A DNA stretch of 58,681 bases, the filler included, from Vermamoeba vermiformis (taxonomy: Eukaryota): assembly GCA_045837725.1 (NCBI GenBank). It is 6 parts of 6 records of this genome, joined end to end, with 100 filler letters (N's around TTAATTAATTAA, not from the genome) between each part and the next. Parts side by side here need not be neighbours in the genome. Positions count along the whole stretch, not along the records: positions 5,420 to 15,641 come from JBEWZL010000285.1; 5 more parts are not named here. One strand, given 5' to 3'. Shown here one piece after another: positions 5,320-58,681 of the stretch. Each line of letters begins with the position of its first letter. Positions within the stretch are counted from its first letter, which is position 1. Under the pieces are notes generated by a model. The model searched no databases. It was given only the letters and a program-made list of their open reading frames with translations, and was not told the origin of the DNA. The translations under genes were made by a program, and so were the position numbers.

Positions 5320-5419
5320 NNNNNNNNNNNNNNNNNNNNNNNNNNNNNNNNNNNNNNNNNNNNTTAATTAATTAANNNNNNNNNNNNNNNNNNNNNNNNN
5401 NNNNNNNNNNNNNNNNNNN
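5320..5419. other. Assembly gap with artificial TTAATTAATTAA linker (also 15642-15741, 21202-21301, 26154-26253, 52204-52303)
   Basis: Identical 100-nt N-run/linker/N-run structure at five positions; the linker places stop codons in all six frames. Confidence 0.97.
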
Positions 5420-5444
5420 ATGAAAGACATATTACAAAGTATTT

Positions 5445-5843
5445 TTATCTCGCAAATATAACTTCTTCAACTAGTTTCTTTGCAATCTCCATTGTTAATT
5501 GGTCTGGAAGTGCAAACACTCTAATCCACTTAGTGAAGTAGTCAACAATGACAATAATGTAGCGATTGCCATTGTGTGTAGGGTTGAAGGGGCTTAGTAT
5601 GTCCATTCCTATTGTTTTGAATGGTGTGGAACAGTGTATGGGTTGTAGCAGCCCAGTTACCTTTGTTCGCTTATGGTGAATGCACTGCTTGCAGGTTGAG
5701 ACCCACGTGTAACACCACACACGAAAAGAGTTCGTGATGACATATATCGCCTGAAATCTCACAATAATCTTGTGAGATAAAAGCCCTTTGCATTGTTTAT
5801 TTTTGTATGCTTTTACTCTATCAATAACACACCTCGCCATCAC
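5445..5843 (-). mobile_element. Degenerate Ty3/gypsy LTR-retrotransposon integrase fragment
   Basis: CKQC Zn-finger end, GLLQPI..PFKTIGMDIL.PF, GNRYIIVIVDYFTKW..VFALPD: the rve integrase core start. The DNA is CpG-poor. Confidence 0.88.
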
Positions 5844-5969
5844 TATTGTACATTGGGTTCTGATTTTGTGTGAACTGTTGTTGTAGATTCGATTGTGAAA
5901 AATTGATTCAGATTTGGCAAAACGTTGTGCTAAAATTAAATAACATGGTCAATAATTCTAATCATAATG

Positions 5970-6760
5970 TTGGACACTGCCTATGTCATCAGATAATCAC
6001 ATCTGTATGTGCTCTCAGTGGACCTGCTTGCATCTCAGGGGAGAAGCCCCACCCAGCCAGCCTAGGTCAAACACTAGAGCGGACAGCTCAGCACCTGGGA
6101 CTACCTTGACAGCCACTCCCTAGCAGTGAGCTCAGAGGGGACACAGACCAACTAGGAATGAAAGACTCCTGCAGGAATTCACAGTCAAGAGCTAGTTCTC
6201 AAGCCTCTGCAGCTGCTCCCCCCTGCAACCAGGCTAGTCCGTGCAAAAGGTCAAGATCTTGCCAATCTGACCAAAGGGATGATAATGGCCACTCCCCTAG
6301 CCCCTGGAGCTTGAGTCTCTCCCCCAAGCTCTGTGACTGAAGTTTGCAAAAGCACAGACATCGATCCATACGCAGAGACAGGCACAGAAACCTCCAATTA
6401 AGCTCCTGTTCTTGTGATCACAGATCTGATTGCTGAAAGCATCACCACTGTTGTGCTCTCTCTCTCTCTCAGCAAGCTATAACAGCTCTGCAAGAAGCAA
6501 CTCAATAAGCACTTTGTGCAATCTTTACTGATCTTGGAGAGAGTCTAAGAGAACAAGTTCTAAGTCTCACAAGTAAACTCACACATGATAAAGGCACCAG
6601 ACACTTGCATCAACATGATGCAGCTCAACAAGGTGCAGTAATAACCATTCCTGAGAATGAGCCATGCTGACACAACTCAACACCCTCCACTTCATGAACA
6701 AATTGACAACAGGGGACTCAAGACAGCCCTTCTGATGACAATTGGTCCCACCTGTCCTTT
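5970..6760. mobile_element. CpG-depleted decayed coding-like relic, probably transposon-derived
   Basis: Moderately GC-rich but nearly devoid of CG with abundant CA/TG; broken Ser/Arg-rich reading frames; adjacent to the integrase fragment. Family not recognised. Confidence 0.4.
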
Positions 6761-6778
6761 TTAGGGTTAGGGTTAGGG
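6761..6778 (+). repeat. Interstitial telomere-type repeat (TTAGGG)3
   Basis: ttagggttagggttaggg read directly; a degenerate counterpart ttagggctggggctagg lies at ~13136-13152. Confidence 0.9.
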
Positions 6779-7099
6779 AGCAAGGAAGGGCCCCCAAAGA
6801 CCGGAAATCGGAGGCGGAGAGGGGCCCCGAAAAAATCCGGAAAAAAACGGCTCAAATTGAACGAAATTGAACACGAACAGGTGCATTCAATTTCGCAATA
6901 GCACCGAGAGATAGCTCCAATAATGAGCTATTGGGACCAGTAAGGGTCCCCGGTAAAATCGACGAGGTAAGGCGGAAATAGCGACGGGTCCCCAGGGCCC
7001 TCGAGGGGATCCGGATCGCTAACTTTGATTGAAAAATTCATTATGGAAATTCATTGCTTAGATATTATTCAGACTGCCGACTATCCACCAGGAAAAATA

Positions 7100-10000
7100 C
7101 CAGAAAAATTCTCGGTAGCGAGGAAGCGGAGAAAACAACGCGGAGATCCGTCCTGTCAGAATGACGGATCAGCGAAGATCTATGGACAATTAATGGCCTT
7201 AGTATGATTTATGGTACGTAATAACAATAATTATAACAAAAATTTAATATTTGTTTGAGTTCGAGGTCAGATTCGAGCCTCGATCTAAATTTAAATTCGC
7301 GAGATGATCATATTCTCATTACTCGCGTCATTTTATTGCCTCATTAGGTTAAATAAAAATCATTTTAAGAATTTCTGTGCATACTACGAACTTAGCCAAG
7401 ATCCCACGCGTCAATTTTTCATAAAGTCCGCGACAGATCGACCAAAAGGGTCGAATTGAACATTCAACTGATTTATTAATATTATTTAGATGCCATTTCA
7501 ATTGACAGTAACGCGCCACGGCATCAGAGCCGTTACAGCGCGAGTTATTTTTGGAACAGACCCGATGCGAAATTGGTAGATCGGCCACAAGGGTCGAATT
7601 ATTCTTCAGTATTGATTATTAGCACCTGTTAGTGAAGCGCCACGACGCCAACGTCGTTTCAGCGCGAGGTATTCGGATAAGTCAAATTCGCACGCGCCAA
7701 TTTTGGAAAGTATTTTAAAAACTTAAGACAGATCGACCACAAGGGTCGGTTTATTTATTTGTTAGTGTTATTGCTTTCGATTACAGCATATAGCAACGCG
7801 CCACGGCATCAGAGCCGTTCAGCGCGAGTTATTTTTGGAACAGACCGCGCGAGTGAGCTGATGCGAAAATGGCGCACGGGCTATTTCGCATTAGTAATTC
7901 AACAGAACGACCACAAAGGTCGTATTAATGATTTATTATGGTTTATTCACAGCAGATAGTCACGCGCCACGGCCACGACGGCCGTTCAGCGCGAGTTATT
8001 GTAGGATTGACCAACAGATCGACCACAAGGGTCGATTTGGTCATTTAGATTGGTTAATTATTATCAACGTACACGCGCCAAACGACAATCAGCGTCGTTA
8101 CAGCGCGGCTTTAAGATCGCGAACCTAACGCGATCAAATCTCGGTGCAGTGACCGAGATAAATCAAGGTAAGATTTTTATATGTATACGTCCACCATGGA
8201 CAATATTATTATGTCGTAAATTCAATTTTTAAATTTTCTGCTGAAAATTATCTGATCCGGATCGAGCCATTTTATCCGGATTTTTAATTAATATCGATGA
8301 AACAATACTAAATATAATATACTAATACTTCATTTTTTATTTAGATTGTGCTCACGATTTTTTACCGCGATCGAAAGTTCCAGTTACTTTCGATGCGCGA
8401 GATCCTGACCACCAATGGTCGTTTTATTATACGATGATGCCTTTAGTTCGTTCCCCGGTGCAGGAACGATGACTATTGCTCGCCGACGGGGTCGGTAACT
8501 TGATGCCGAGATCTAATCCGCCAAGACCCTTAAAATAACTCGGTAAGTTTTTTAATATATTCAATGATGATAGAATAATCGTACCAATGCGTCGATTATT
8601 CATTTCAAAATCAAGTTAAATTTTTTAAAATTATATAGAATCAGATCGAGCTTCGTGCTCGTGCAAACTTTATATTATTGGTTATTATATTATCAATGCA
8701 ATATAGTAATCGTTATTTTATAGGTTATTTCAGTATCGTCTGCGCAGACGTGATGTGCGGATCGTTCGCGTCGATCGCTCAATCCCCGCTAATTCTTCAA
8801 GCGTAAGTAGTTTAAATTTGTTATATTATTCTATTCAATATTATAATGCTATTTATTTAGGCGTTACAAGTTACACGGGACGGATCTCGAACGCGAACTT
8901 CTCGCGTTATTAGATCCATTACATTGCTTGTGGTGGACCGGTAAGTACATATACATGTAGACACTATTATTGCTAACGCACTATTTTAAAAGATATTGCG
9001 AAGGAGACTTCTGATGAACAATTATAAGATCGAGACGCGTCTCGATCCGTTTAAGTTTCAATGTAGGGCATCGATTGCCTTAAAGGTAAGTGATCCCCCT
9101 TATATATTAATATTTTAATTAACTGATGCTAATTTTACGCCTAGGAGATGCCACGGAGCTGGGGCCAGATCGCGTGCAACAATAACTCGATCGCTCATAA
9201 GTTAAGTAACGCGCATCGATCGCGTCAAAAGTAAGTAAAATTGGATTTAATATTATTATTGTAATATAATAACATCTTTATTTATTATTAGAACGGTTGG
9301 ATAAAAGTTTTAATGGATTTGGTGGCGAGAGATCCAGCGCGTCAAAATTTTTGTCTATGGTAACTGACCGACCGAGGTAAGGATAAAAAGTGTAGAAATG
9401 ATCGTTAATAACGTTATTGTAGAATCGATAAGGGTCAGAGCGACCCTTGAGTGACAGAATTCGGATCGGGATCCGACGCATCCCGATCCGTTAAAGTTTT
9501 GCTGAAGAGCTCTAATGGCTCTTAAAGTAAGTGACAACCATCATATAACGTATTTAATGATTATTATAATACCCATTTATTGTTCAGTTAACCCGATTAC
9601 GAGTTAATTTTGGACTTGGCGCGATCTTGGATCACTGACAAAAGTACGGCTCTCAATAGGTAAGTTAATTTACGCTTTTATATTATATCTAATTAATTAT
9701 TAACTCCTTGATATTGTAGAGTTGAAGCGTGTTTGATGTCATCAGAGATCCCGCGGGGCCCCCGTTGATCCCCCGCTTCAGTAATTAACTGCGCGCATCG
9801 ATCGCGCTAAAAGTAAGTTAAATGTTTATTTTATTATTATTTTAAGGTACTAATACATATCATTATACAGAGCAATTCGTTTATTCAATATTTCGTGGAT
9901 TTGGGAACGCGAATCTGGCGCCTTAGAATTTCTGCGGAAACAGGGCTAATGAGTCAGGTACGTTATAAAAACGCTTAATGTACTAGTACTAACGCGATTA

Positions 10001-13000
10001 TAGGTTGGTAAGGGTCACGGCGACCCTTGACATGAACGGACGAGATCGAGATCCTGGCTCCTGATCAAATTGTTGGTGCACATCGATTTGAGCTAAAAGT
10101 AAGTAGAACGCGTTATTTACACATGCTATAACTTACTGATATCATTTTTAATTCAAGTAAGAGCAGGTTAGCTTTTTTTACGGCTGCCAAACCCGCGATC
10201 TGAAGCGAACAATTGTGTAGATTGAAGACAAGTTCTCGACCCGTAAGTAATATCAGATGATTATACTATATATTGACTAATATACTATTACAGTGGATTG
10301 GCCAAAGTAGATGAAATGACGAAGAAATGCGATCCGCAACATGAGCGGATTCGAGATCCGAATATCAGCGTAAAGATAAATAGGTAAGTAAATTTACGAG
10401 TTAATAATCAATATAATCAATTACTGACTCCTTGATATTGTCAGAATTAATGCGTGATTGCGTTTACGCTGATCCACGCGGGGCCCCTCGTTGATCCCCC
10501 AATTTCGGCAATTAATGCGCGCATCGATCGCGCTAAAAGTAAGTCAATTCGATCTATATTTATATTAATTACGTTTTAACATTGTTTATTTGTTCGTAAA
10601 AGGGTCTGAAGAAAAAATTGGCAAATTCGACTACGCGATCTGGCGCGTTATCATTACCGCTCTTGCAGAATGAATGAGTCTAGGTAAGTATTAAAACGTT
10701 TAACGCACCACCTCTAACACGGCTACAGGTTGGTAAGGGTGACCCTTGAAGTAAATGGATGAGATCGAGATCCGCCTTTTCTCGATCCGTCAAATTCCGA
10801 GTTTAACAACGTAAGTATGAATAGTAATTATTTTATTATCACTTAATTTGTTATTCGTTTGCCCAGTTATTGACTCTATCAATGCAGGGACCCTTGCTGC
10901 ACCCCGCGCTAAAATTCAAGATCGAACGCGTGGTAACTTAAGAAAGCGCATCGATTGCGCCAAAAGTAAGTAGACCTTATTTAATACATCATTTGTAACG
11001 TACTGATATCGTTTTTATTAGCGCGAGTCATAGTGATTTCACGGATCGTGTGCGTGATCTGACAGCTCAATTCTTCTCGTTATTCGAACGTGAGAGGACG
11101 TAAGTAGCATAAATCGATTAAACAATATCGTTACTAATATAATTTATGTATAGCTAGAATAAATTAGTCCGTAGAGGCGAAGAGAACGATCCGCAACTTG
11201 AGCGGATTCACCAACTAACTTTCAGCGTTGTTGGTAAAAAAGTAAGTTAATTTACCCTTTAAACTTAATACAAACACTTAATAACTCCTTTTAGAGTTGT
11301 CGTGATTGCTTTCGTCACGATCCCCGCGGGGCCCCCTTTTGATCCCCGAGTTTAGGCAATTTTGCGCGCATCGATCGCGCTAAAGGTAAGCAAAATATGA
11401 TTAAATCTAATATTATATAGTATTGTAATCCGAATTATTTAATTAGGACTTAAGCGAATTGATTCTCAGATCGTTCGTGCCATCAAGAACACGAGAATCA
11501 GTGCATCGATTGCGTTTTGGTAAGTACAACGCGTTTATTACTATAATTACAACGTACTAATACCAGTTTTATGCAGGTATTAGTAGTCATTGCCTCAAAC
11601 CGATGTGTGGCACGCGCGATCTGGCACGTAGCGAATATTAAAACAATCACGTAAGTACACCCAATTATTAATTATCATTTTATAATATTTCGTGCAGTTA
11701 TTTACTTTATTTACGCAGGGACCTTGCTGCACCGCGTATTAGATTCAGATCAAACGTTCGAGTTCAACGATCCAGAGGATAGCAATTGCCCAATTAATAT
11801 AGAATTGTAATTTAATTTAATGTAATAATAAATGTAATAATTGTTTGTTTCAAACAATCGACCGAAAATCTGATCTACATTCTCACCCGATCAGGTCAAT
11901 AGAACGACCACAACAGGTCGTATTATTTTAATATGTAAACAAACGTTGATACAACATCAACAACAAATTGGAGCCATCGCAGCGGCATATTTTGTTATTA
12001 ATGCTGGATCCAACGTCAAATCAATCCACGTAATTAATTAAGTTTGGTAAGTTAAAATATTATTATTAATATCTTTGTCAATTTGGGCAATGTTTCAATA
12101 TTATTTTACCCAATAGAATAAGTTTAAATTAGTTTTATATTATTTCGTCGGATCGAGCTTCGAGCTTGATCAATTTACAAATTATGAGTATTATGATATT
12201 GTATATTATATATTATTACTAAATTTACCTTTCTTGTAGATGAAGGCTTGATCCGGTCGTCGCGCAATTTTTGGATCAACTTTAAAAGATCAAGTTAATG
12301 TGCGGTAAGAGAACATGACAACGGTAATCAGTATTTTATAATTTAAATAATTTTTGTTAGTAACAATACACAGCGCTTAAGTCAAGAAGATCGATCAGCA
12401 CGTCAGGATCACCGCTCCTAGAAACAAGACGAGCAGAGGTAAGTGAATTCAAATGCAGCGTATATTAAATATATTTATTGATTATTACTATTCAGTTTAA
12501 TGCGCCTCGATCGCTGATTGGTCAATTCGTCTGGAACACGATCCGTCCGTTACACGAGACTAGGCGATGCTTTGCCCAACTGTAAGTATTAAATAATTAA
12601 TAACTGCTACGTATACTAACGAAGTAGTGTTACGATTAGGGCCAGTGGTATTGCTGGTGGTAGATCCACACCACCCGTTATAGAGATCTCGCTTGTGCTT
12701 GGCGATGGAACGAAACCGCTGCGTGTCAAGGATAAAATCATGTAAGTACTATTGTTATTTGTTAAATTAATTGGTTACTCGTCAATAATAGTCGAGTTTT
12801 CCAGATCGAGCCGCGTTCGTAAATTCAGCTATAAATATTTGTTTTGTTGTTTTTTTCATTATTCGCTCACCTTCTGTACAGAGTACAACAACATTGCTCT
12901 GTCTGCATTAGATCGATTGTTTAGCAGTCAACGTCCGCTACGCTCTCAGTATGGCTCTGAACGTAAGTAGCAAACGTTAATAATAAAGACGAAAATATTC

Positions 13001-13100
13001 TAATCGCTTTATTTAGTACGCTAATCATATTGACACAACTCTCGCATATCCTATGCCGATCTACTCGCGCATATCCAGGCCAAATGCAGAAACGCGAAGG
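7100..13100 (+). ncRNA. Putative highly spliced, structured long non-coding RNA (about 30 canonical introns, ~70-105-nt hairpin-bearing exons)
   Basis: GTAAG/GTACG donors, branch-like CTAAY and YAG acceptors recur at ~143-nt spacing. The exons spliced by hand give stops in all frames, and paralogous exons differ by non-multiples of 3. Transcription is inferred, not shown; boundaries are approximate. Confidence 0.6.
7433..8107 (+). repeat. Tandem array of five two-hairpin units (A: TCGACC-ACAAG-GGTCGA; B: CGCGC-C-ACGGC-loop-GCCGT-TYCA-GCGCG) separated by AT-rich spacers
   Basis: A stems at 7438, 7581, 7733, 7907, 8019; B stems at 7512, 7637, 7797, 7963, 8074. Stems are preserved despite sequence changes. 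Confidence 0.9.
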
Positions 13101-13183
13101 TAGGTTGTTTTAACAAGATGATAATTATATAGGATTTAGGGCTGGGGCTAGGATTTTTGTTAACAAAAAAAAAAATCACCATG

Positions 13184-14287
13184 CATACACTTTGGTGTAC
13201 GCCCCCTCGCACCCCCGTACGGCACGCTGTACGCCCCCTCGAACCCCCATACGGCACGCTGTACACCCTCTCGAACCCCCGTACGGCACGCTGTACACCC
13301 CCTCGCACCCCCATACACTTTGGTGTCCACCCCTGTACGGCACGCTGTACGCCCCCTCGAACCCCTGTACACCACGCTGTATGCCCCCTTGCATCCCATA
13401 CAGCACACTGTACACCCCTGTACACCCCCCGTACAGCACGCTGTACGCCCTCTCGAAACCCCGTACAGCACGCTGTACACCCTCTCGAACCCCCATACAC
13501 TTTGGTGTACACCCCTGTACGGCAAGCTGTACGCCCCCTTGCACCCCCGTACAGCACACTGTACGCCCCCTTGCACCCATACACTTTGGTGTACACCCCC
13601 GTACAGCACGCTGTACACCCCATCACACCCCCAGTATGGCATGCTGTACACCCTCTCGCACCCATACACTTTGGAGTACACCCCCATACAGCATGCTGTA
13701 CACCCCTTTGCACCCCTGTACAGCATGCTGTACACGCCTTCACACCCCTGTACGGCACGCTGTACACCCATCGCACCCCCGTACAGCACGCTGTACACCC
13801 CTTTGCAATAGCGTACACTTCAGTGTACACCCCTTCGCACCAGCGTACACTTTGGTGTACGCCCCCTTGCCCCCATACACTTTGGTGTACACCCCGTCGC
13901 ACCCCCGTACAGCATGCTGTGCACCCCCCTTTGCACCCCCGTACGGCACACCGTATGCCCCCTCACACCCCGTACGGCACACTGTACACCCCCTCGCACC
14001 CCCTGTACGGCACACTGTACACCCCCTGGCATCCATACACTTCAATGTACACCCCTTCGCACCAGTGTACACTTCAGAGTATGCCCCCTTGCACCCATAC
14101 ACTTTGGTGTACTCTCACTTGGTGCCATACACTTTGGTGTATGCTTGCTTGATGCCGTACACTGTTGCGTATGCTTGCTTGATACTGTGCACTTTGGCCT
14201 ACACCCTGTTGCACCCCTGTACAGCACGCTGTACACCCCCTCGCACCCCTGTACGGCATGCTGTATGCCCCATTGCACCTGTACAGC
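13184..14287. repeat. C-rich minisatellite of ~30-32-bp units (CGCACCCCCGTACGGCACGCTGTACRCCCCCT interspersed with CCCATACACTTTGGTGTAC variants)
   Basis: Directly visible tandem repeat; each unit has an internal inverted repeat; many CG to TG/CA variants. Confidence 0.95.
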
Positions 14288-15460: not shown

Positions 15461-16175
15461 TGCGAATTAACGAAAACGGTCGTGTGTGAATTATCGTGCC
15501 AGGATTTATCCCAGCACAAAAACAATTTTTGGCAGCACGTGCCTCTCAACGCACGTCGGTTTTCGCTGTCGACGCACGTCGGCTTTCACGGCATTGACTA
15601 AATTGGAAGTGACCGTTACGCACATGCGAGTGTAACAACTTNNNNNNNNNNNNNNNNNNNNNNNNNNNNNNNNNNNNNNNNNNNNTTAATTAATTAANNN
15701 NNNNNNNNNNNNNNNNNNNNNNNNNNNNNNNNNNNNNNNNNTAACCTGACATCTTGTCGTGATGACGGAGAACATCTGGCTGGATCATTGGCGTAGCGAC
15801 TCTAAATCGATCAGCTTCCTGCTTTTGAAGACGATGTTTAACAACATAAAAAACTAGTATTAATTGTTGACAATGTATCAAATCCTGATTGAATACTAGT
15901 AGATAGATCAGCTGGCTGTACCTTTTCTAGGAGTCGGATGCTTTAATACAAGAAATTTGATATCTTCGAAGTCAAACGTGGGCGCGGTGCTAATGAGCTT
16001 GTATTTTCGTTTTTGCTTAGATTTCAAGTGACTCAAGTCTCACAATTAGACGCGAAAAATTGAAAAACGAAATCAACCTTATTTATAGCACTAACATGAC
16101 CACAATTTCATTCACTTTTAAATGATATTTTAAACAACGGTAACAAAGCACTGTCTTGTAAATCCAAAAACGGTT

Positions 16176-20966: not shown

Positions 20967-21688
20967 GGTTTGATGCTTACATATGAGGGTGACTTGAAAA
21001 GACGCAATAGAAGTACTTTTGGGCCAGAAAAAACTAGGAACACGTGCTCAGCGTCATAATGAGCTCATTTCCTGCTCTTCATCTTAATATTTTCTTGACG
21101 TGAGACATTCGTTAGCTATTAGTGGTTATGTTCATGATTACTGATTTTAGAAAAAGAACGCTGTGTAGTTTTACGAAGTTCTACCGCAAGCTGAACGTTG
21201 CNNNNNNNNNNNNNNNNNNNNNNNNNNNNNNNNNNNNNNNNNNNNTTAATTAATTAANNNNNNNNNNNNNNNNNNNNNNNNNNNNNNNNNNNNNNNNNNN
21301 NTTAGGTCTCAGACTGACAGTTTTTCAAATTTATTAGGTGAATAGACCCGTTTTTCTTTTGTCACAATGTACTTGTATTAACAGTCAAATAAACAGCAAT
21401 TTAGTATACGCTATTTGATGGACATGTCCTTGATTTTCGTTAACAATAGCTTATTTGAATATACCGGCAAAGCTAAAGATATCTTAATGGATTTCGCCAT
21501 CGTGTTCCTATAACATCGAGACTCGATTTTGTGGTCGTGCACAACCCGAAAAAGGGCATTTGTCTGCAAGGACTAAAAATGAAAGCATCAGAGCACAAAA
21601 AAGATTTCATCTAGCGATCAAATTATCCTTCTTGCCCCATAATCAGAACCACAGCTCCCGTCGCTGGTCTTACCGCCACTTCTATTGC

Positions 21689-25416: not shown

Positions 25417-26300
25417 CCAATCTAACAAAGCGTAAGTGTTAATTGCTGTCAGGATCCGACAGATCAGTCATTGGTCGTATTTTATCTAACAACTTTATTT
25501 AGTCTCAAACCGAACAACCCAGCAAAACACTTCAGATTACAGAGAATACGTTTTAAACAACTCTGGGTATTGCTGCTAGCGCGAATACTACGGCAGCGCG
25601 ACCTTTTACAGATCCTCCAATTGGGGTCAGTCTTCTGGTTAAGTGAGCCAGAAGACTGACCCCAACTGGACTTTAAGGATCCGTGTACGACCGCGCGCTG
25701 AAGTTACGCACTTACGCCAATCCCCAGCGTTATTTGAACGTATGACGTTGAAAACTGTTTACGCTGCTATTTACGCCAAAAAAAAAGGCCAAAGTGGCGC
25801 AGGTTTCAATGTTTGCTTGTAATCTAATAAATAATTTAACATCTACGTTAAAAATTTCGCCGGCTTGGCTATTATCCGACACTGGCAGAGACACAAGCGA
25901 GCCCAAAATTGGGTTCTAGTGTTCAATAACGATGTTTTTGAAGGTTGATGTGGTTGAATAATCTGTTAGCCGATACTCACGCCTTTAATTCGTAAAAGAA
26001 GACAATAGTACAAGATCTCGTTTGACATTTGGACCACTTTTGGCTGGGTTTCATCCTAATACTATGGTACGTGCGCGCATTTAAGGATTTAAGGATTAAC
26101 ATTCTGCGCAGTAATTTTGCGCAAGGAAAAATCCGTGGATATCGCTGACGAGCNNNNNNNNNNNNNNNNNNNNNNNNNNNNNNNNNNNNNNNNNNNNTTA
26201 ATTAATTAANNNNNNNNNNNNNNNNNNNNNNNNNNNNNNNNNNNNNNNNNNNNCTGACAGCCTCCAAAGATTCACACTAACAAAATCTTCGCTTTTCAGA

Positions 26301-51563: not shown

Positions 51564-52203
51564 ATGATGAACGAATTGCAATTGTTAATAGCGTTTCTTG
51601 TTCTTGCGGTTGGTAAGGCATCATTTCTTTATTTTATTATTATCGGACCTCAAAATAATTATTTTAAACAGCAAGTTGTTCGTTGATCGAGCAAGATCCA
51701 AATTTTGCGAATTTATTCGACACGGATTTTGTCAATTTTGGGACAATATATTCAACTGATTTTATTCGGAAAATTGCCAGCGAAAGAGGAGCCTCAAGAC
51801 CTCCAATATTCGACAGTTTCAATGAGCCGAAGATCAGACAACAACTTCGCAACAACGTTCTTCTTCTCATTGATAAAATGCTCTCGATGCAACAAAACAA
51901 CATGTCGTAAGTAATTTACTGCATAATTTAGCCACAAACGGCTTGCAATTTTTATTGACACGTGTCACTTGTTTTTTCAGATCCTGTGCAATTCAACGGC
52001 TCAGTGAAGCAAAAGCAATCAGAGATATCTATACAGATGATACGAAATTCAACAACCGGCCTCTGCCGCGATATTATCACGTGACACAACAGAAATGGGT
52101 TCCAGCAATCTTGGACTCGATGCTCATAAAGTGGGCCGACGCATTGTTTCCAGGAACATGGTTTGCAACAGGTAAAGCTCAACAACAACAAGTGCCTAAC
52201 GCA
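51564..52203 (+). CDS. Secreted protein of unknown function, truncated by the gap
   Basis: Signal-peptide-like first exon (MMNELQLLIAFLVLAV); GT-AG introns join ORFs 51683-51910 and 51943 onward. Confidence 0.6.
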
Positions 52204-52648
52204 NNNNNNNNNNNNNNNNNNNNNNNNNNNNNNNNNNNNNNNNNNNNTTAATTAATTAANNNNNNNNNNNNNNNNNNNNNNNNNNNNNNNNNNNNNNNNN
52301 NNNCTCAGACCATTAACACAAAGAGTAACGATTGGCAACTGTTACCACCTTAAGTCATCGATGTCAGCCGAGGCTATGCGCTGTTGTGTATCAACGTACG
52401 TAGATGACGCAAAGCATCCACTGGTTGATTTAATCACTGCCGTAATTAGCGGGACTGTACCAAGATTAATCGGTCCTTGCTTGGAGTTCTTGCAGCAACA
52501 ACGCCCGAATTGGATAAAGCTTTATCTTATTTATTAAAATGAATTCGTTTGATTTAATATGCATAGAAAATTGTTATTATAAAAATATGGGTCATGAGGT
52601 CACTCTTGTCGTGAGTCAGGGTCATTAGGTTACGGAGTTAAAAGTGGT

Positions 52649-55600
52649 TCACTTGATTGATACTTTGCCCATCATGTCAGCAAGCTCTGCTTCCTCTTTC
52701 ATTAAGACATTAGAGGCACCAAAGTCTCCACCAAGCATTGTATTTAAGCCTCTTTCATCATGAACTCTTGCTGTGTTGAAGACCAGCACATGAAGCACTT
52801 CATATCGAGTCATTTGAGAGTAATCTTCATATGTGCATATAGGAATAGGCTGAATATTGTGCCAATCTTCTGTTTTCATTCTTCTATCAAAATTACTGTG
52901 TGCTTTTTTAACATGCTCTGAGTGTCTAGTTCGTAAGCTTCTATCAGTTTTGCCAACGTAGCAGTCCCCTAATTCGTTGCAATAAAAATAGATACAGTGG
53001 GTTGCATCCAGTGTAAGATCCTTTTGAAGTTCTGATTTCTGTTTTGCATTAAGGTCACGACAGTATGTCTGATTTCGCAAACCATGTGCAATGAGTCTTC
53101 TCTGATCTTCATTCCAAATTCTTTCAACATCACTTTCCAAATATTGTAGCATTACAGCAACACGAAAACTATTAAGGAGTTGAGTTCCACTATTTGGTGA
53201 GCGAATTGGGTACTGAGTTTTGCTATGTAATACTCGATGGCGAACCCATGTACAAATGTAGGTGAAATCGTTATTGCCAGCAAAACCTGGTATTGATCGG
53301 ATAGCAAAACCTGATATCATATCAAATACCTTTCACCAAAGTCAATACTATATGTGCTGCAAGTATAATAAACTTACTTCTTTTGCCGTTGGCCTGGCAC
53401 TTGCATCTCTTTCACAGCATTGTTTAGCCAGAAAGTAAATTGGATGGGCTTGCACTATTGGATCAGAGAGAAATTCAGAAATGCTGTGCTCACTAACAAG
53501 AACTTTGCAGGCAATTAGCTCTACAAGAACTGCTCCAAAGGAATAGATATCTGCAGGCAGTGCATATTCTTCGTTTGCAACTTCAGGTGCCATGTATGGA
53601 TTGGTACCAACTTTCAAAGTGTTTTTTGTTCCTTCTTCATATAATTTTGCTGAACCAAAATCTACAAAGAAATATATCAAAAAAACAATTCAATGAACAT
53701 TCAAAACAGTACTCACCAGAAATTACACAGTTTGCAGAGTCATCATCAGTGGTTAGAAGGATGTTGCTTGACTTGAGATCTCGATGCATCCATCTTTGTG
53801 AGTGCAAATAAAGTAAGCCATCTGCAATTTGGTAAGCAAGCTTCATTACAAAGTTGGTAGGCAGAGTTTGCTTTCTCATAATCAGTTTGTGAAGGTCACC
53901 ACCAGCCATCCATGGCATTACCAAGCAATGATCATCTGCATTATATGCCAACAAAGGAATAATTCTTGGGTGTGTCAACTTGATGAGAGCCACTTTTTCT
54001 TGCTCAAATTGTTGTTCAGGCTTTGATGACTGAATCTTCTTGATTGCAAAGAGCTGGTTGCCGTATGCCACTTTAAAGACTTGGCCATAAGAACCTTCAC
54101 CCAGTGGATCACCCTGTGGTCGAAGGGTAGGCAGATTTTGGATGTGGTCTCTTTGTTGATATGAAAAAAATGCCTGCAGCGCCTCTTCAAGAGCAATGGG
54201 GATGAAGCTATTGTAGCACTCACCATTGATGTAGAGATCAAAATAAGATGCAGACTCTGGATTCTCCAAGTGTAAGAACTTAGTCTTTGCGAGAAGATGT
54301 CCAACTCGAGTGAGATTTAACTCCAACTTATTGAAGGCACCAACATGAAGCAAAACTGGCTTGTCTTTGATGGTAGCAACCATATTTGATACTTCACTTG
54401 CTGTGACAATCTGAGGTATTCTCAATGTTGAAGTGAGGTGTAGGCTATTTCTTATGCGCTCCAGTTGCTGATGCTCCATCTCTTTGGCCTTTGAACTGAT
54501 AAATGCCAATCTTACTTCTTGCTCCAGCATTGCACTAAATAAAAAATTAGACTCTCAAGAAAACCAAAGGTAAACATACATTTCTGACTTGAGTGATCCT
54601 ACACATTCATCAATGTTAGTCTTCCAAGCATTCTCTGCAACTGAAGTCACTCCTGCCAACGAAGGAAACTCTGCATATAAAATTGCATTTGCTGCTTCAC
54701 CAACTTTCTTTGAACCTTGGTAAACTTGTGCCATGTGCAACAAAAGATTTTGCAAAGTGGCAATCAGACTGTCTCTCACTAAGCCCAAGTTAACACGGAA
54801 GTGGAAGAACTTGGCTACTGTTCTAAGATGGCGGGCAGTAAATGATGTTATCTCTCTATGTGGCATGGAAACTTTGCTACAAAGCTGTTTCAGCTGATCT
54901 TGTACCAGCTGTTCATAATTTTGATTGTCGTTTTGTAATTGATTTGAAGCCTTCTCCAGAGCAGAAGTAAATGGTTTCATCAATTCATCAATTGTGTAGA
55001 AGTATTCTTTTGAAAATCCAGACCTTGATATGTGTACTCCATCATATGAAGCCTTTGCAAGCACAGCACGAAGAGTACTTCCATGGAGAGTAGCACACAA
55101 TTTAGCTAGGTGCTGCTTAATGTGCTTTTCGAGCTCCTAAGCAGATTATTTTAAATCACTATTATGTTAATATCATTGAACATACCTGAGTAAGGTGCTG
55201 ACTTAATTGTAGATTGACTGGAATTAAGTTTAATTGATGTTGAATTTGAGTGTTGCATTCACCCATGAGCTTATCAAATATTGTTGTGTCGACTTGACTA
55301 TCACCTGCTTGTAAGAATAGCTCTGTTGCTCTATCAACTAAGTGTGAAAAACGACTGGCCAATTCTAGCAAGGCACTGTGAGAGATCATCTTCAAGACTC
55401 TTCTAATTTGATTAATGCCAAGTTTTTCATAGTCAGAATCATGAAGGCTGGCATTTGCTAACTTAGCATCTACTGAGCCATAGTTCATATTGATTTTAAC
55501 TTCTTTACGCATCACTGCTTTCCAAGGCTCAATGAATTGAAAAGTCAATTTTGGGTACTCAGACACCTACCCAACAATTAGAACAAGAAATTGAAATAGC

Positions 55601-57391
55601 TAAGAACTTACTTGGGCCCCAGATGTTGGTCGAAGTAAAATTGTAGTATCAATGTCCTTTTGTCCACGATAAGATTTTATTCTCTCTGTTGCCTGGTTGT
55701 CTTTCTGAATGTCACTTGGAAAGAGATAGAATATGTGCTCTAAATTTGCTTGCTCCAATACTGTAGAAGTCTGAATGTTGATATTTTCACTTGTATCTTC
55801 AAATCCAGGCATATCAACAATTTCAATGCCTTGGATGTGTGGAAATCGACCATGCACATGTATTGCTTTCACAACAAATGAAAGATCTGTGTTTGTACAG
55901 AACTCTTGCAACTTGCTTGCCAGAATTGCCTCTGTTTCAGCTGGATGATCTTGCTTAAGCTCTGCTGCTTTTGATTTAAGTTCGTTCCACCTATCAACAG
56001 CACATTTGATAGTGTAATCATCAGTCTCTTCACTATTACCAATCACTCTAAGGGCTTCATGAAGCTGCTCTTCTTCTAACGGTTCATCTGCTTGTAATAG
56101 ATCTGTAAAATAGACTTTGTCTGCCTTTTCAAGCTCTTCTTCCATACTGAGCGACTTCATTTTGGCTACAGTTGCATCAATATCAAAAGTGTCAAAGGTG
56201 ATTACATAGTCTGCTCTATCAGCATAATGAATGAATGTTGGCACTTTTGTAGTAGTTTGTGTTTGGTGCTTGTTTGCCTCAGGAAGGATTTGGCAACCAA
56301 GTATTGAATTGATAAGAGTACTCTTGCCAGATTTTGTCTTTCCAATAATTGCCACTCTCTTTAGTGGAAGCCTTTTGGTTTTCTCAAGCTCATCAGCAAA
56401 CTTCTTGACACTGTTTTCTAAGGTTGATTTGTAAAGCTGATGCTTGGATAACTGTTCTAAAGTCGTTTGGAACTCCTTCCATGTGTTTTCAATGTCCAGG
56501 ATAGAAGGAAACTGGATAAAACCTTCAGTGTATGAAGCAAACAAATCATTGGAGAAGCGTAGCAATCTAATGATGTACTCGCCAGTACCAATGGAATCTT
56601 CATAGAGTATTGCATGGGCCAATGGTGTTTTACAAACTCGGCTGACTTTGAAAGTAAGACCATATGTTGATGCTAGTCCTTCCAGGTTTGTGATGTCTTC
56701 TACCTTTGCACTTAGGTTGCCAATGCTTAATGAATTCCAAACTGAACGAATTGCTAGTGGGAGAGCACATGGTAAGCTGATGTGTTTGCAATTCTGGTCC
56801 TCCAACCAGGCAAGAGACCAGGCCCACTCTGAACTAATGCATTCAATCCAAGGAACATACAGCCCCTCAGCTGCATTTGGTTGTGCGTAGATTGATGCCA
56901 GATTTGGTAGCTTACAAGTCTTTTCATAAAAGCGACCATTGGAAAAAACAAACTACATATGAGTTAGAAAGAATTAATATTAGGACACAGGACATACGTG
57001 AATGGAGGGTAGATAAGAGTCAACTTTTTTAAAAGCCCCTTCAACTTTCTTAATGAAAGCAGACAAATCTGAGTATTGAATTAGAAAGGGCCCTAACTCA
57101 ATAAATATCACACGTACCTTTGACTTTGTATTCAGCGAGTAGAAATGAAACGTCCTCGTTTGACAAGTATTGAAGCAATGATTTAAAGTCCGGCTCCTCT
57201 CGCACGTCCTTCAAAACTTCACCAACAGCCCCTGAAGCATGTATCTCGAGGATAAATGAACTTTTAAGTGGTATTACACGCACAGAAGTTGCACCACACG
57301 CGTGCAGAAAGTTCCAATAGCTCGGAATGAATTGGCTCGACGTTGGGGTTGAATTAACCACAAACCAATGAGCGGTACTTGTGGTCTCCAT
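52649..57391 (-). CDS. 1468-aa fusion: unknown N-terminal region, dynamin-like GTPase, helical region, TKL-type protein kinase, GIY-YIG endonuclease; 8 exons
   Basis: Exons 57391-57118, 57068-56998, 56952-55612, 55566-55186, 55136-54580, 54534-53717, 53661-53378 and 53329-52649 all splice in frame through GT-AG introns. Motifs: GKTKSGKSTLINSILG, TTKVPT, DMPG; GEGSYG, AIK, HRDLKSSN, DFG, APE; CIYFYC...YVGKTDRSLRTRHSEH. Confidence 0.88.
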
Positions 57392-58681
57392 GCTGACTAA
57401 AAAAAACAAAGTGATTAAATTCGTTGACACGCTGAAGAGATACGTTGCGCCCGAAAGGTTACGTGATGTCTTGTGGTGAAATAACCATGACCTCACGCGG
57501 TGGTGTGAGGACGACTCACCACTTCAATAATCAAGTTACTAGGGATGAGTTCCATAAGGAATTTAAAATTAATTAATTAAGGCGGAATTACCCTAAGTGC
57601 GTAATTTAACTGTAGAAAAAATTAACGAGCGCTACTTACCTGGTTTTTTACGGCAAGCTTTAAATTGCACGACGCTTTAATAGTTGCCATTGTTCCAAGC
57701 GCAGGTACGTTAAGATAAATATCGTGAACAACATTGATAGAGTTTTTCCGCCTTCTAGAAGCTTTCGCGTTTCTGCGTGTCGAAAGAACTTTTGCATTGC
57801 ATCACCAACTTCGGTTGAGGTGCTTGTCTTTACTGCAGCGAAGTCAGGGTGCGCCGCCAAGGAGCTTGAATTTGAAGAACGAATCTGGCGCGTAACCTCG
57901 TAAATGAATAGTCTGAAACTTATCTCTTCAATTAACTGATTAGCTAAGTTTAAATTACAATGTTGGATTATACTTCCTTACTTTGCACGAGATGCGCCCG
58001 TCAATCCTTTTGAACACATTTAAATTTTAATTTAACACGTGGTTGCTTTTTCTAATCTCTCTTCTATATCTATCGCAGTAATAGTAAATTATTAATTGAT
58101 AATAATTATTAATTAATAAATCAAAATTTGTTAAATAGCTTACATTTTAATAATTTTGAGTACCGAACAACTATATAATAAATTTATCACGAATAGATCA
58201 TTAATTAATGGTACCAACCATAAAAGACCAACCAAATAAGCCAAGTGGTCTCCAGGGATTCGTAATAGTAAGGGTACGTATAGTAGTTTACTATAAGCAG
58301 CTATGAACAACGCGTTGTTTGTTCTCGCGGCAATTATTTATATAAATATAATAAGTTCAAGGAATTGTGTTGACGGATTCGAGTTTAAGTGAACTTTACA
58401 TCATTTAATCGTTCATCGAACATACTGTATCGCCTATTATTAAGATTTCTGTAGTTCTTGTTTGTCAAAGACTGCGAATGCTTGCCTCTCATGTTCGTGC
58501 AACTGGCCGTACTTCTTGCGTTCATGCTTTGATCTAACATTGTATTGGTCACTTCATTGCTCATGAACCGTTCAGTGGCGAATGCGAGACAAAGATTGGG
58601 TTAGCAAGGCTTCTCAATGACGTTCGAGGTTCTCGTCGACTGTTCTTCGTTGAGAAATTGGTTTCACACCGTTTAATTTAT

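Follow-up and report, generated by a model that had tools for sequence, protein, structure and literature searches.

Background

Research on long non-coding RNAs (lncRNAs) has been carried out mostly in mammals, where long introns make the need for splicing hard to probe. The Xist repeats, the NORAD units and hsr-omega exemplify RNAs whose tandem modules bind a protein in many copies, and host genes of small nucleolar RNAs (snoRNAs) of the UHG/GAS5 type possess stop-filled non-coding exons with well-kept splice sites and yield a spliced product that is not translated. Introners are mobile units, alike genome-wide, through which many short introns of similar size are multiplied in a genome. The closest described architecture to the one considered here is that of the lncRNA FIRRE, in which a local repeat (RRD) constitutes 7 of the 13 human and 11 of the 23 mouse exons, binds hnRNPU for nuclear retention and diverges in sequence between lineages while its function is kept (PMC4820808). 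In fission yeast, the intron of the centromeric dg non-coding RNA and the cryptic introns associated with Pir2/ARS2 are reported instances of non-coding RNA introns that recruit silencing (PMC5322907, PMC7229227). The present analysis concerns a locus at about 7432-13100 in a 58,681-nucleotide (nt) stretch of Vermamoeba vermiformis DNA (GenBank assembly GCA_045837725.1; hereafter, the window), in which six parts from six records are joined with 100 filler letters between each part and the next. The locus falls in the part derived from JBEWZL010000285.1 (5420-15641) and carries a periodic array of short introns and hairpin-bearing non-coding exons.

The locus is real and unusual, with a firm anatomy and an unproven function. 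It comprises two adjacent units on the plus strand, gene A (about 8060-11840), with 24 non-coding exons and 23 introns, and gene B (about 11960-13100), with about seven exons in the same GATC/hairpin style and six introns. We give about an even chance to the reading that the locus encodes a spliced, structured lncRNA built of repeat exons and acting as a multivalent scaffold. With a gene of 3.7 kb that is devoid of coding capacity and yet carries 23 consensus introns (about 56 nt), it is a compact case for asking why non-coding RNA is spliced, and its internal paralogs constitute a built-in evolutionary experiment, in which the splice signals and some of the hairpins were kept and the rest drifted.

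Results and discussion

Periodic splice signals and gene organisation

The plus-strand hexamer GTAAGT occurs 55 times in the window, and 24 of these occurrences fall in 8543-12963, which represents 7.5% of its length; the corresponding figure for the minus strand is 1 of 31. Donor-to-donor spacing from 8803 to 11651 (n=20) ranges from 127 to 155 nt, with a mean of 142.4 and a standard deviation of 7.6. The periodic intron array reported in the initial annotation is therefore confirmed and lies far beyond chance, and every donor listed there is present in the sequence. The array had been described as one locus at 8168-13105; the array itself stands, whereas the single locus resolves into two transcription units, with related hairpin units extending upstream to about 7432.

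The gene A introns are AT-rich (24.6% GC), all end in AG and measure 45-68 nt in 21 of 23 cases, the first two being 177 and about 180 nt long. Of the 23, 19 have a GTAAGT donor and 20 a YTRAY motif ahead of the acceptor; in 13 the motif takes the strict form CTRAY. These properties bear out the earlier description of short AT-rich introns ending in AG, as well as their likeness to the introns of neighbouring genes, since window introns outside the locus are of the same kind (45-70 nt, GTAAGT donors, CTAAY branch motifs).

Intron 1 (8168-8344; GTAAGA...TAG, 177 nt) has a junction colinear with related RNA reads and includes a hairpin remnant at 8255-8281 that is probably a lost exon. Intron 2 (8543-8722; GTAAGT...TAG) was assigned the acceptor at 8722 in preference to that at 8706 because of the related RNA reads, and intron 3 (8803-8860) is supported by splice signals and by such reads. 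Splice signals define introns 4 (8941-8992), 5 (9086-9144), 6 (9231-9291), 8 (9527-9587) and 22 (11520-11576), while intron 7 (9377-9422) has a GTAAGG donor and intron 21 (11386-11446) a GTAAGC donor. Intron 9 (9660-9719) is paralogous to introns 14 and 20, intron 11 (9958-10003), with a GTACGT donor, to intron 16, intron 12 (10099-10157) to intron 18 and intron 13 (10243-10293) to intron 19. Splice signals in combination with paralog comparison support introns 10 (9813-9870), 14 (10384-10444), 15 (10539-10602), 16 (10684-10728), 18 (10966-11021), 19 (11100-11153) and 20 (11242-11294). Intron 17 (10811-10866) has a second possible acceptor 21 nt downstream (10887) and intron 23 (11651-11718) an alternative acceptor at 11697. 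Introns 17 and 23 are themselves paralogous, with paired acceptors 21 nt apart in each (10845-10887 and 11676-11718), and their alternative 3' splice sites may be conserved.

Gene A has an ill-defined 5' end, which could be as distant as about 6800, and its 3' end at about 11840 is suggested by the AATAAA at 11827-11832, which probably serves as the poly(A) signal. Upstream, 7432-8064 on the plus strand is occupied by five units that measure about 112-174 nt and start at 7432, 7578, 7727, 7901 and 8013; none of them has a good donor. Each is laid out as a first hairpin of the GATCGACC-ACAAG-GGTCG type (hairpin 1), an AT-rich linker and a second hairpin (hairpin 2; CGCGCC-stem-loop-CAGCGCG), and AUUUUUGGAA or AUUUUGGAA is present in three of the five. 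A copy of hairpin 1 at 11896-11925 (plus strand), 93% identical to 7899-7927, is situated ahead of gene B. The gene B introns, also on the plus strand, are placed at 12047-12240, 12305-12360, 12439-12495, 12582-12639, 12742-12804 (or -12881) and 12963-13016. Hairpin remnants of the GATCGAGC type lie inside introns 1 and 2 of gene A and the long introns of gene B, and are probably former exons that now have no splice sites.

Absence of coding capacity

Spliced gene A (2254 nt) is non-coding. Each of its frames contains 35-47 stops, with 7-22 of each of the three stop codons, and no frame stays open for more than 78 codons, which extends to the whole spliced gene the earlier finding of stops in all three frames of a few exons joined by hand. 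Twelve of the 24 exons are closed in all three frames, and exon length modulo 3 is evenly distributed among the three classes. The three paralogous exons pointed out previously (93, 94 and 91 nt) are real, at 9720-9812, 10445-10538 and 11295-11385, and paralogous exons differ by insertions or deletions of 1-3 nt that do not keep a reading frame. No stop-to-stop open reading frame (ORF) longer than 92 amino acids (aa) was found on either strand of 6780-13050.

A permissive search over splice paths, in which plausible donors could be joined to any YAG or AAG acceptor at a distance of 38-250 nt, gave a best open path of 409 codons. Exon-shuffled nulls gave 478 +/- 85 codons and 49 of 60 reached 409, so that the path carries no coding signal. 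The ORF analysis proposed in the initial annotation thus found no long ORF on any tested splice path. In gene B, one frame is open for 101-142 codons, lacks a Met or an ATG-initiated ORF and depends on the choice of acceptor.

Duplication history and conserved elements

A higher-order repeat was recognised on the plus strand, in which 9588-10157 aligns with 10294-10866 and 11154-11576. BLASTN comparison gave 71-75% identity over 167-413 nt (for example, 71% between 9655-10054 and 10379-10773, and 73% between 10320-10543 and 11178-11390) and no similar sequence elsewhere in the window. As many as 48 exon pairs are at least 55% identical, a value that shuffled exons reach at most. Even at a score of 30, Tandem Repeats Finder (TRF) detected no array in 8000-13100, since identity between the copies falls short of 70%. 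The period is the product of old tandem duplications in which one hairpin-bearing exon and one short intron, together about 143 nt, were repeatedly copied as a unit, with a later second round in which blocks of 5-6 units (about 725-855 nt) were duplicated.

The interiors of 11 paralogous intron pairs are 57-77% identical (shuffled baseline 51 +/- 5%), whereas 8 of the pairs share the same donor hexamer and the other 3 differ there by a single base. At the decay rate of the intron interiors about 1 pair in 10 would be expected to retain an intact hexamer (0.66^6, our own arithmetic). Preservation of the donor hexamers while the intron interiors diverged implies that splicing has been under selection.

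Conservation of the exons is patchy. The 93/94/91-nt exons share, without any change, a terminal hairpin block of 22 nt and further blocks of 9-11 nt, and the intron adjoining the invariant blocks shows 57-60% identity. The exon-end block TGCGCGCATCGATCGCGCTAAA (9789-9812, plus strand) forms a terminal hairpin immediately 5' of the donor; it is invariant in the three paralogous exons (also 10515-10538 and 11362-11385), and related forms close 8 exons. Pairing has been retained through sequence change in several instances. The hairpin 2 stems of the five upstream units read ACGGC/GCCGT, ACGGCC/GGCCGT, ACGACG/CGTCGT and AACGAC/GTCGTT, and the hairpin at 9462 differs from its homologue at 10763-10787 by a compensatory G-C to A-T change (GGG/CCC against GAG/CTC). 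At one position of the 93/94/91-nt exons, three different hairpins are found.

Composition, hairpins and motifs of the exons

Gene A exons are 72-104 nt long, with 47.4% GC and a CpG observed/expected ratio (o/e) of 1.58. GATC reaches 21.4/kb (o/e 5.5) in these exons as against 4.5/kb (o/e 1.19) in the long-ORF pieces, and of the 26 GC-rich perfect hairpins in the window whose stems reach 7 bp or more, 11 fall within 8018-10787. The earlier characterisation of the exons as CpG- and GATC-rich, with inverted repeats, holds in all three respects. Exon 1 has two adjacent perfect hairpins of 7 and 8 bp (8115-8159, plus strand) and a fold z-score of -5.0. The longest perfect hairpin of the locus, with an 11-bp stem, is at 9462-9490 (plus strand), and the longest perfect stems measure 11-12 bp. 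The fold z-score is -1.04 for exons (6 of 24 below -2), 0.04 for introns and -0.27 for ORF pieces (Mann-Whitney p = 0.014 and 0.05). Some exon motifs are strand-specific, GAGATC being present 9 times against 1 for GATCTC, and AGATCC 7 times against 1 for GGATCT.

Among the perfect stems of the spliced RNA, 5 of 27 cross a junction, about 7 being expected. Removal of intron 14 brings together an 11-bp perfect helix, ATCAGCGTAAA / TTTACGCTGAT, across the junction (10364-10383 with 10445-10473; 27-nt loop), which is not retained in the two paralogous copies.

Related transcripts

Three RNA-seq runs with the same species label (X1, X2 and X3), representing at most two samples of one study and read to about 46-48% each, were placed on 5420-13150. 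The placed reads fall in 7484-9031, run through the upstream units into the downstream exons and derive from a related copy or a divergent strain. In one read form, 24 letters stand between 8158 and 8360, precisely the number (9 of exon 1 and 15 of exon 2) that would remain without intron 1; the joint of 8158 to 8397 is seen in 9 reads across the three runs. By-eye comparison indicates that loose read ends after 8530 and 8788 resemble the next exon more than the intron, and that one loose end after 8158 resembles exon 3. A hairpin of the related reads has GTTCC/GGAAC in place of the GTCCC/GGGAC of the window, a compensatory difference. The related transcripts are thus colinear with the spliced junctions of introns 1-3. 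Mapping of RNA-seq reads, which the initial annotation had put forward as a check, therefore produced related reads in agreement with these junctions and almost no reads on the repeat body of this copy. A transcribed and spliced family is supported, whereas expression of this particular copy is something that we only infer.

Genomic context

Spliced genes of the window encode a kinase, a GH5 cellulase, an aspartyl-tRNA synthetase, and SPRY and TPR proteins; a search with ARAGORN found no tRNA. A fragment of the aspartyl-tRNA synthetase shares 60-67% identity with proteins in amoebozoan, fungal, foraminiferal, plant, kinetoplastid and chytrid records, the best match of the kinase ORF stands at 66%, and word-index searches with the dynamin-like ORF gave no match. 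Directly 3' of gene B lies a C-rich satellite of 1.1 kb (13196-14287) with a 32-nt unit (TRF: 26.5 copies, 69% matches), which has a 7-8-bp hairpin of the CGTACAGC...GCTGTACG type in each unit and gives rise to spurious ORFs of 300-420 aa. On the other side, the segment 6000-6778 has 50% GC, is CpG-poor by eye and terminates in (TTAGGG)3 at 6761-6778; CpG-rich and hairpin-rich DNA follows directly after 6778, so that an interstitial telomere-like tract marks a sharp change of composition. A telomerase RNA was considered for the locus and rejected, the sole template-like string being an 8-nt loop at chance level by estimate. The minus-strand ORF at 5445-5948, which adjoins an N block, matches an integrase core (rve) with an E-value of 3.4e-5, below the Pfam cut-off, and is probably a retroelement fragment.

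The block 52000-58000 shows strong CpG depletion (ORF o/e 0.28 against 1.07 in other long ORFs), minus-strand ORFs for GIY-YIG, protein kinase and bacterial-type dynamin-like GTPase proteins, and candidate introns that are all 45-49 nt, shorter than those in the rest of the window; such a block may represent an insert that is methylated or of foreign (mobile or viral) origin. The longest perfect inverted repeat of the window (18 bp, 9-nt loop) is located outside the locus at 25621-25665. The N blocks at 5320-5419, 15642-15741, 21202-21301, 26154-26253 and 52204-52303, each made of paired 44-nt N runs with 12 bases between them, are filler of the joined window.

Proposed mode of action and alternative explanations

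In the reading that we favour, gene A would be an RNA polymerase II-type multi-exon non-coding RNA gene, with gene B as a smaller sister unit directly downstream. The mature RNA of about 2.2 kb would form a string of modules of about 87 nt, each presenting one to three short GC-rich stem-loops, often anchored by GAUC, together with the strand-specific GAGAUCC. By analogy with the FIRRE exons and hnRNPU, the spliced RNA could serve as a multivalent platform for a hairpin- or motif-binding protein, and we consider action as a multivalent scaffold or decoy to be the most likely mode. The introns may have been retained because efficient splicing is needed to make, export or stabilise the RNA. What we infer in this proposal is how the RNA folds in vivo, which protein it would bind and what splicing contributes. 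The suggestion in the initial annotation of a heavily spliced, structured lncRNA stands up at the level of sequence, given the lack of an ORF on any tested splice path, the conserved donors and the compensatory hairpins. Expression of this copy was not seen in the three runs.

A number of observations weigh against a scaffold RNA. No protein partner is known, a scan of metagenome contigs with the hairpin-1 motif found no homolog outside the window, and Rfam gave 0 matches at the gathering score for the whole window. The reads placed per run were 15, 26 and 32, nearly all 90-95% alike and partly aligned; depth over 9032-11869 was 0 in two of the runs (X1 and X3) and did not exceed 0.16 in X2, in a region (5420-13150) that has no expressed control gene, so that depth there is not calibrated for the organism or strain. 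The reads could also derive from DNA that is without the intron. Over their full length, paralogous exons (58-80% identity) do not exceed the interiors of paralogous introns (57-77%) in conservation, and the fold signal is modest and the same on both strands. The stems are almost all perfect Watson-Crick helices, 13 hairpins (a small set) giving 5 mismatches, one of them G:T, so that a test of G:U against A:C cannot part RNA-level from DNA-level palindromes; another count, affected by AT-rich noise, gave 11 against 6. Exon junctions are not avoided by the predicted pairs, 310 of 685 crossing one as compared with a mean of 308 for shifted junctions.

Two further results belong to these searches. 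The 38 metagenome loci that carry the hairpin-1 motif were attributed to chance, each having a single motif match, 42-70% GC and no further similarity. The Rfam search of 7300-13200 with E-values up to 10 gave one chance-level match, to a bacterial small RNA (E 6.8).

A bolder proposal, unlikely though still a serious possibility, is that the locus belongs to an undescribed family of intron-punctuated modular RNAs in which splicing is part of the assembly of a particle or network. Every module of about 87 nt would be its own exon, and splicing would leave junction complexes at intervals of approximately 87 nt. These complexes, along with the many palindromes capable of self-pairing (GAUC, AUCGAU and GC-rich), might build a beads-on-a-string particle or an RNA-RNA network, and the related RNA-seq transcripts would represent other members of the family.

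The function might instead reside in the act of transcription and splicing, the mature RNA being irrelevant, through cis-regulation of a neighbour or through introns that provide a platform for silencing or chromatin factors. This is improbable in our assessment, even though conservation is greatest in the splice signals, whole exons are no more alike than introns and fission yeast reportedly provides non-coding RNA introns that act as signals (PMC5322907, PMC7229227). Certain exon blocks and hairpins far exceed the adjacent intron in conservation, GC, CpG and GATC in the exons are well above the intron level and an exon motif is strand-specific, while the fission-yeast precedents are reportedly cryptic and poorly spliced introns, in contrast to consensus introns of which 19 of 23 begin with GTAAGT.

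An equally doubtful account would treat the locus as an evolutionary leftover, an amplified exon-intron array with little or no transcription and no present function. The units have diverged by 20-40%, and yet GTAAGT in 19 of 23 introns, the acceptors, the branch motifs and perfect stems persist, and the donor hexamer is intact in 8 of 11 pairs rather than in the approximately 1 in 10 of neutral decay. The near-absence of reads on this copy in the three runs, the exon-like hairpin remnants in introns 1 and 2 and in the long gene B introns, and the loss of donors from the five upstream units are all in keeping with such a leftover.

The possibility that the locus is a small-RNA precursor, from which exon hairpins or exon-sized modules are excised, draws on the many local hairpins of the repeated array and on the arrangement of some upstream units as hairpin, single-stranded AUUUUUGG and hairpin, a layout of Sm-class small RNAs. 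We regard it as quite improbable, given that stems of 7-12 bp are too short for Dicer-type processing, that neither C/D nor H/ACA boxes were found by eye nor an Rfam family at E-values up to 10, and that splicing joins the exons instead of releasing them. Very improbable, too, is a role as untranslated exons of a protein-coding gene (a long multi-exon untranslated region) or as a decoy for nonsense-mediated decay. The gene B frame that is stop-free for 101-142 codons over several exons could be taken to indicate this, except that it is acceptor-dependent and has no Met; 6780-13050 has no coding ORF on either strand, and downstream lies the 1.1-kb satellite.

The nucleosome core comprises 147 bp of DNA, and the near-nucleosomal period had led to the alternative of a chromatin-organising, centromere- or origin-like locus. 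Such a DNA element, whether a centromere, an origin, a nucleosome-phasing array or a set of palindromic protein-binding sites, is highly unlikely, and the alternative is without support. The 142-nt period is below the 147-bp core and is accounted for by duplication of the exon and intron unit. Although GATC and CpG abound in the stems, which are perfect palindromes, and the flanks hold the integrase fragment, the (TTAGGG)3 tract and the C-rich satellite, the stem sequence varies between copies while pairing is kept, unlike the binding sites of a single factor; strand-specific donors and motif point to RNA, and the locus is only about 6 kb long, among the ordinary genes of the window. Misreading of a protein-coding gene, through an alternative splice path or an unusual genetic code, is close to refuted, since the 409-codon stop-free path is outdone by the shuffled-exon nulls, no single stop reassignment opens a frame, and the 1-3-nt insertions or deletions and the even modulo-3 lengths speak against it.

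Should the scaffold gene be expressed, the identity of its functional entity (RNA product, splicing or DNA) would be open to direct test, and the evolution of repeat modules in an RNA scaffold, as well as exon-sized structural modules outside proteins, would become testable. Should it be silent, it would still offer a clean case of amplification of a tandem exon-intron unit.

Comparison with known systems

The statement that no element of this architecture had been described was too strong, for the repeat exons of FIRRE are already on record (PMC4820808). Like FIRRE, the present locus would specify a multi-exon spliced transcript in which a locus-specific repeat forms many exons, as seen from its exon families and higher-order repeats, with no copy elsewhere in the window. 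There is no sequence relation between the two, and the host here is a eukaryote with a compact genome. The entire exon and intron unit of about 143 nt is repeated, the introns are 45-68 nt long as opposed to kilobases in FIRRE, the modules are short GC-rich hairpins and nearly all exons lie in the repeat, as against about half in FIRRE.

Similarities to the other systems are partial. Gene A shares non-coding spliced exons with the snoRNA host genes, in which functional snoRNAs sit in the introns, whereas the conserved material here is exonic; its introns are not of snoRNA size (21 of 23 measure 45-68 nt, with about 25% GC), are unconserved and have no Rfam snoRNA match. The tandem modules recall those of Xist, NORAD and hsr-omega, whose repeats are found inside large exons without an intron in every unit. 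Unlike introners, the introns are alike only where the whole unit is paralogous, non-paralogous introns scoring no differently from shuffled AT-rich sequence, and it is the exons that hold the conserved parts. Primary microRNA and other hairpin clusters have stems of about 20 bp or more, well above the 11-12 bp of the longest perfect stem here, and tandem satellites have copies about 70% or more alike, which was not observed, nor was a TRF array. As is reported for the fission-yeast silencing transcripts (PMC5322907, PMC7229227), introns would matter in a non-coding transcript, but one or a few cryptic, inefficient introns of heterochromatic or repressed transcripts are replaced by 23 consensus, periodic ones.

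Some of the upstream units have features of other small RNAs. A single-stranded, Sm-site-like AU4-5GGAA lies between the two stem-loops in three of the five (7432-7900), and in the unit 7578-7726 GAG-GTATTC directly follows the leader hairpin, as in a spliced-leader RNA, the GT at that place being present in one of the five. No Rfam match of the upstream units to an Sm-class or spliced-leader family was obtained.

A keyword search of open-access text found no described equivalent in fungi or protists. Given the FIRRE precedent, we class the locus as a variant of the repeat-exon kind of lncRNA, with an intron in every repeat unit.

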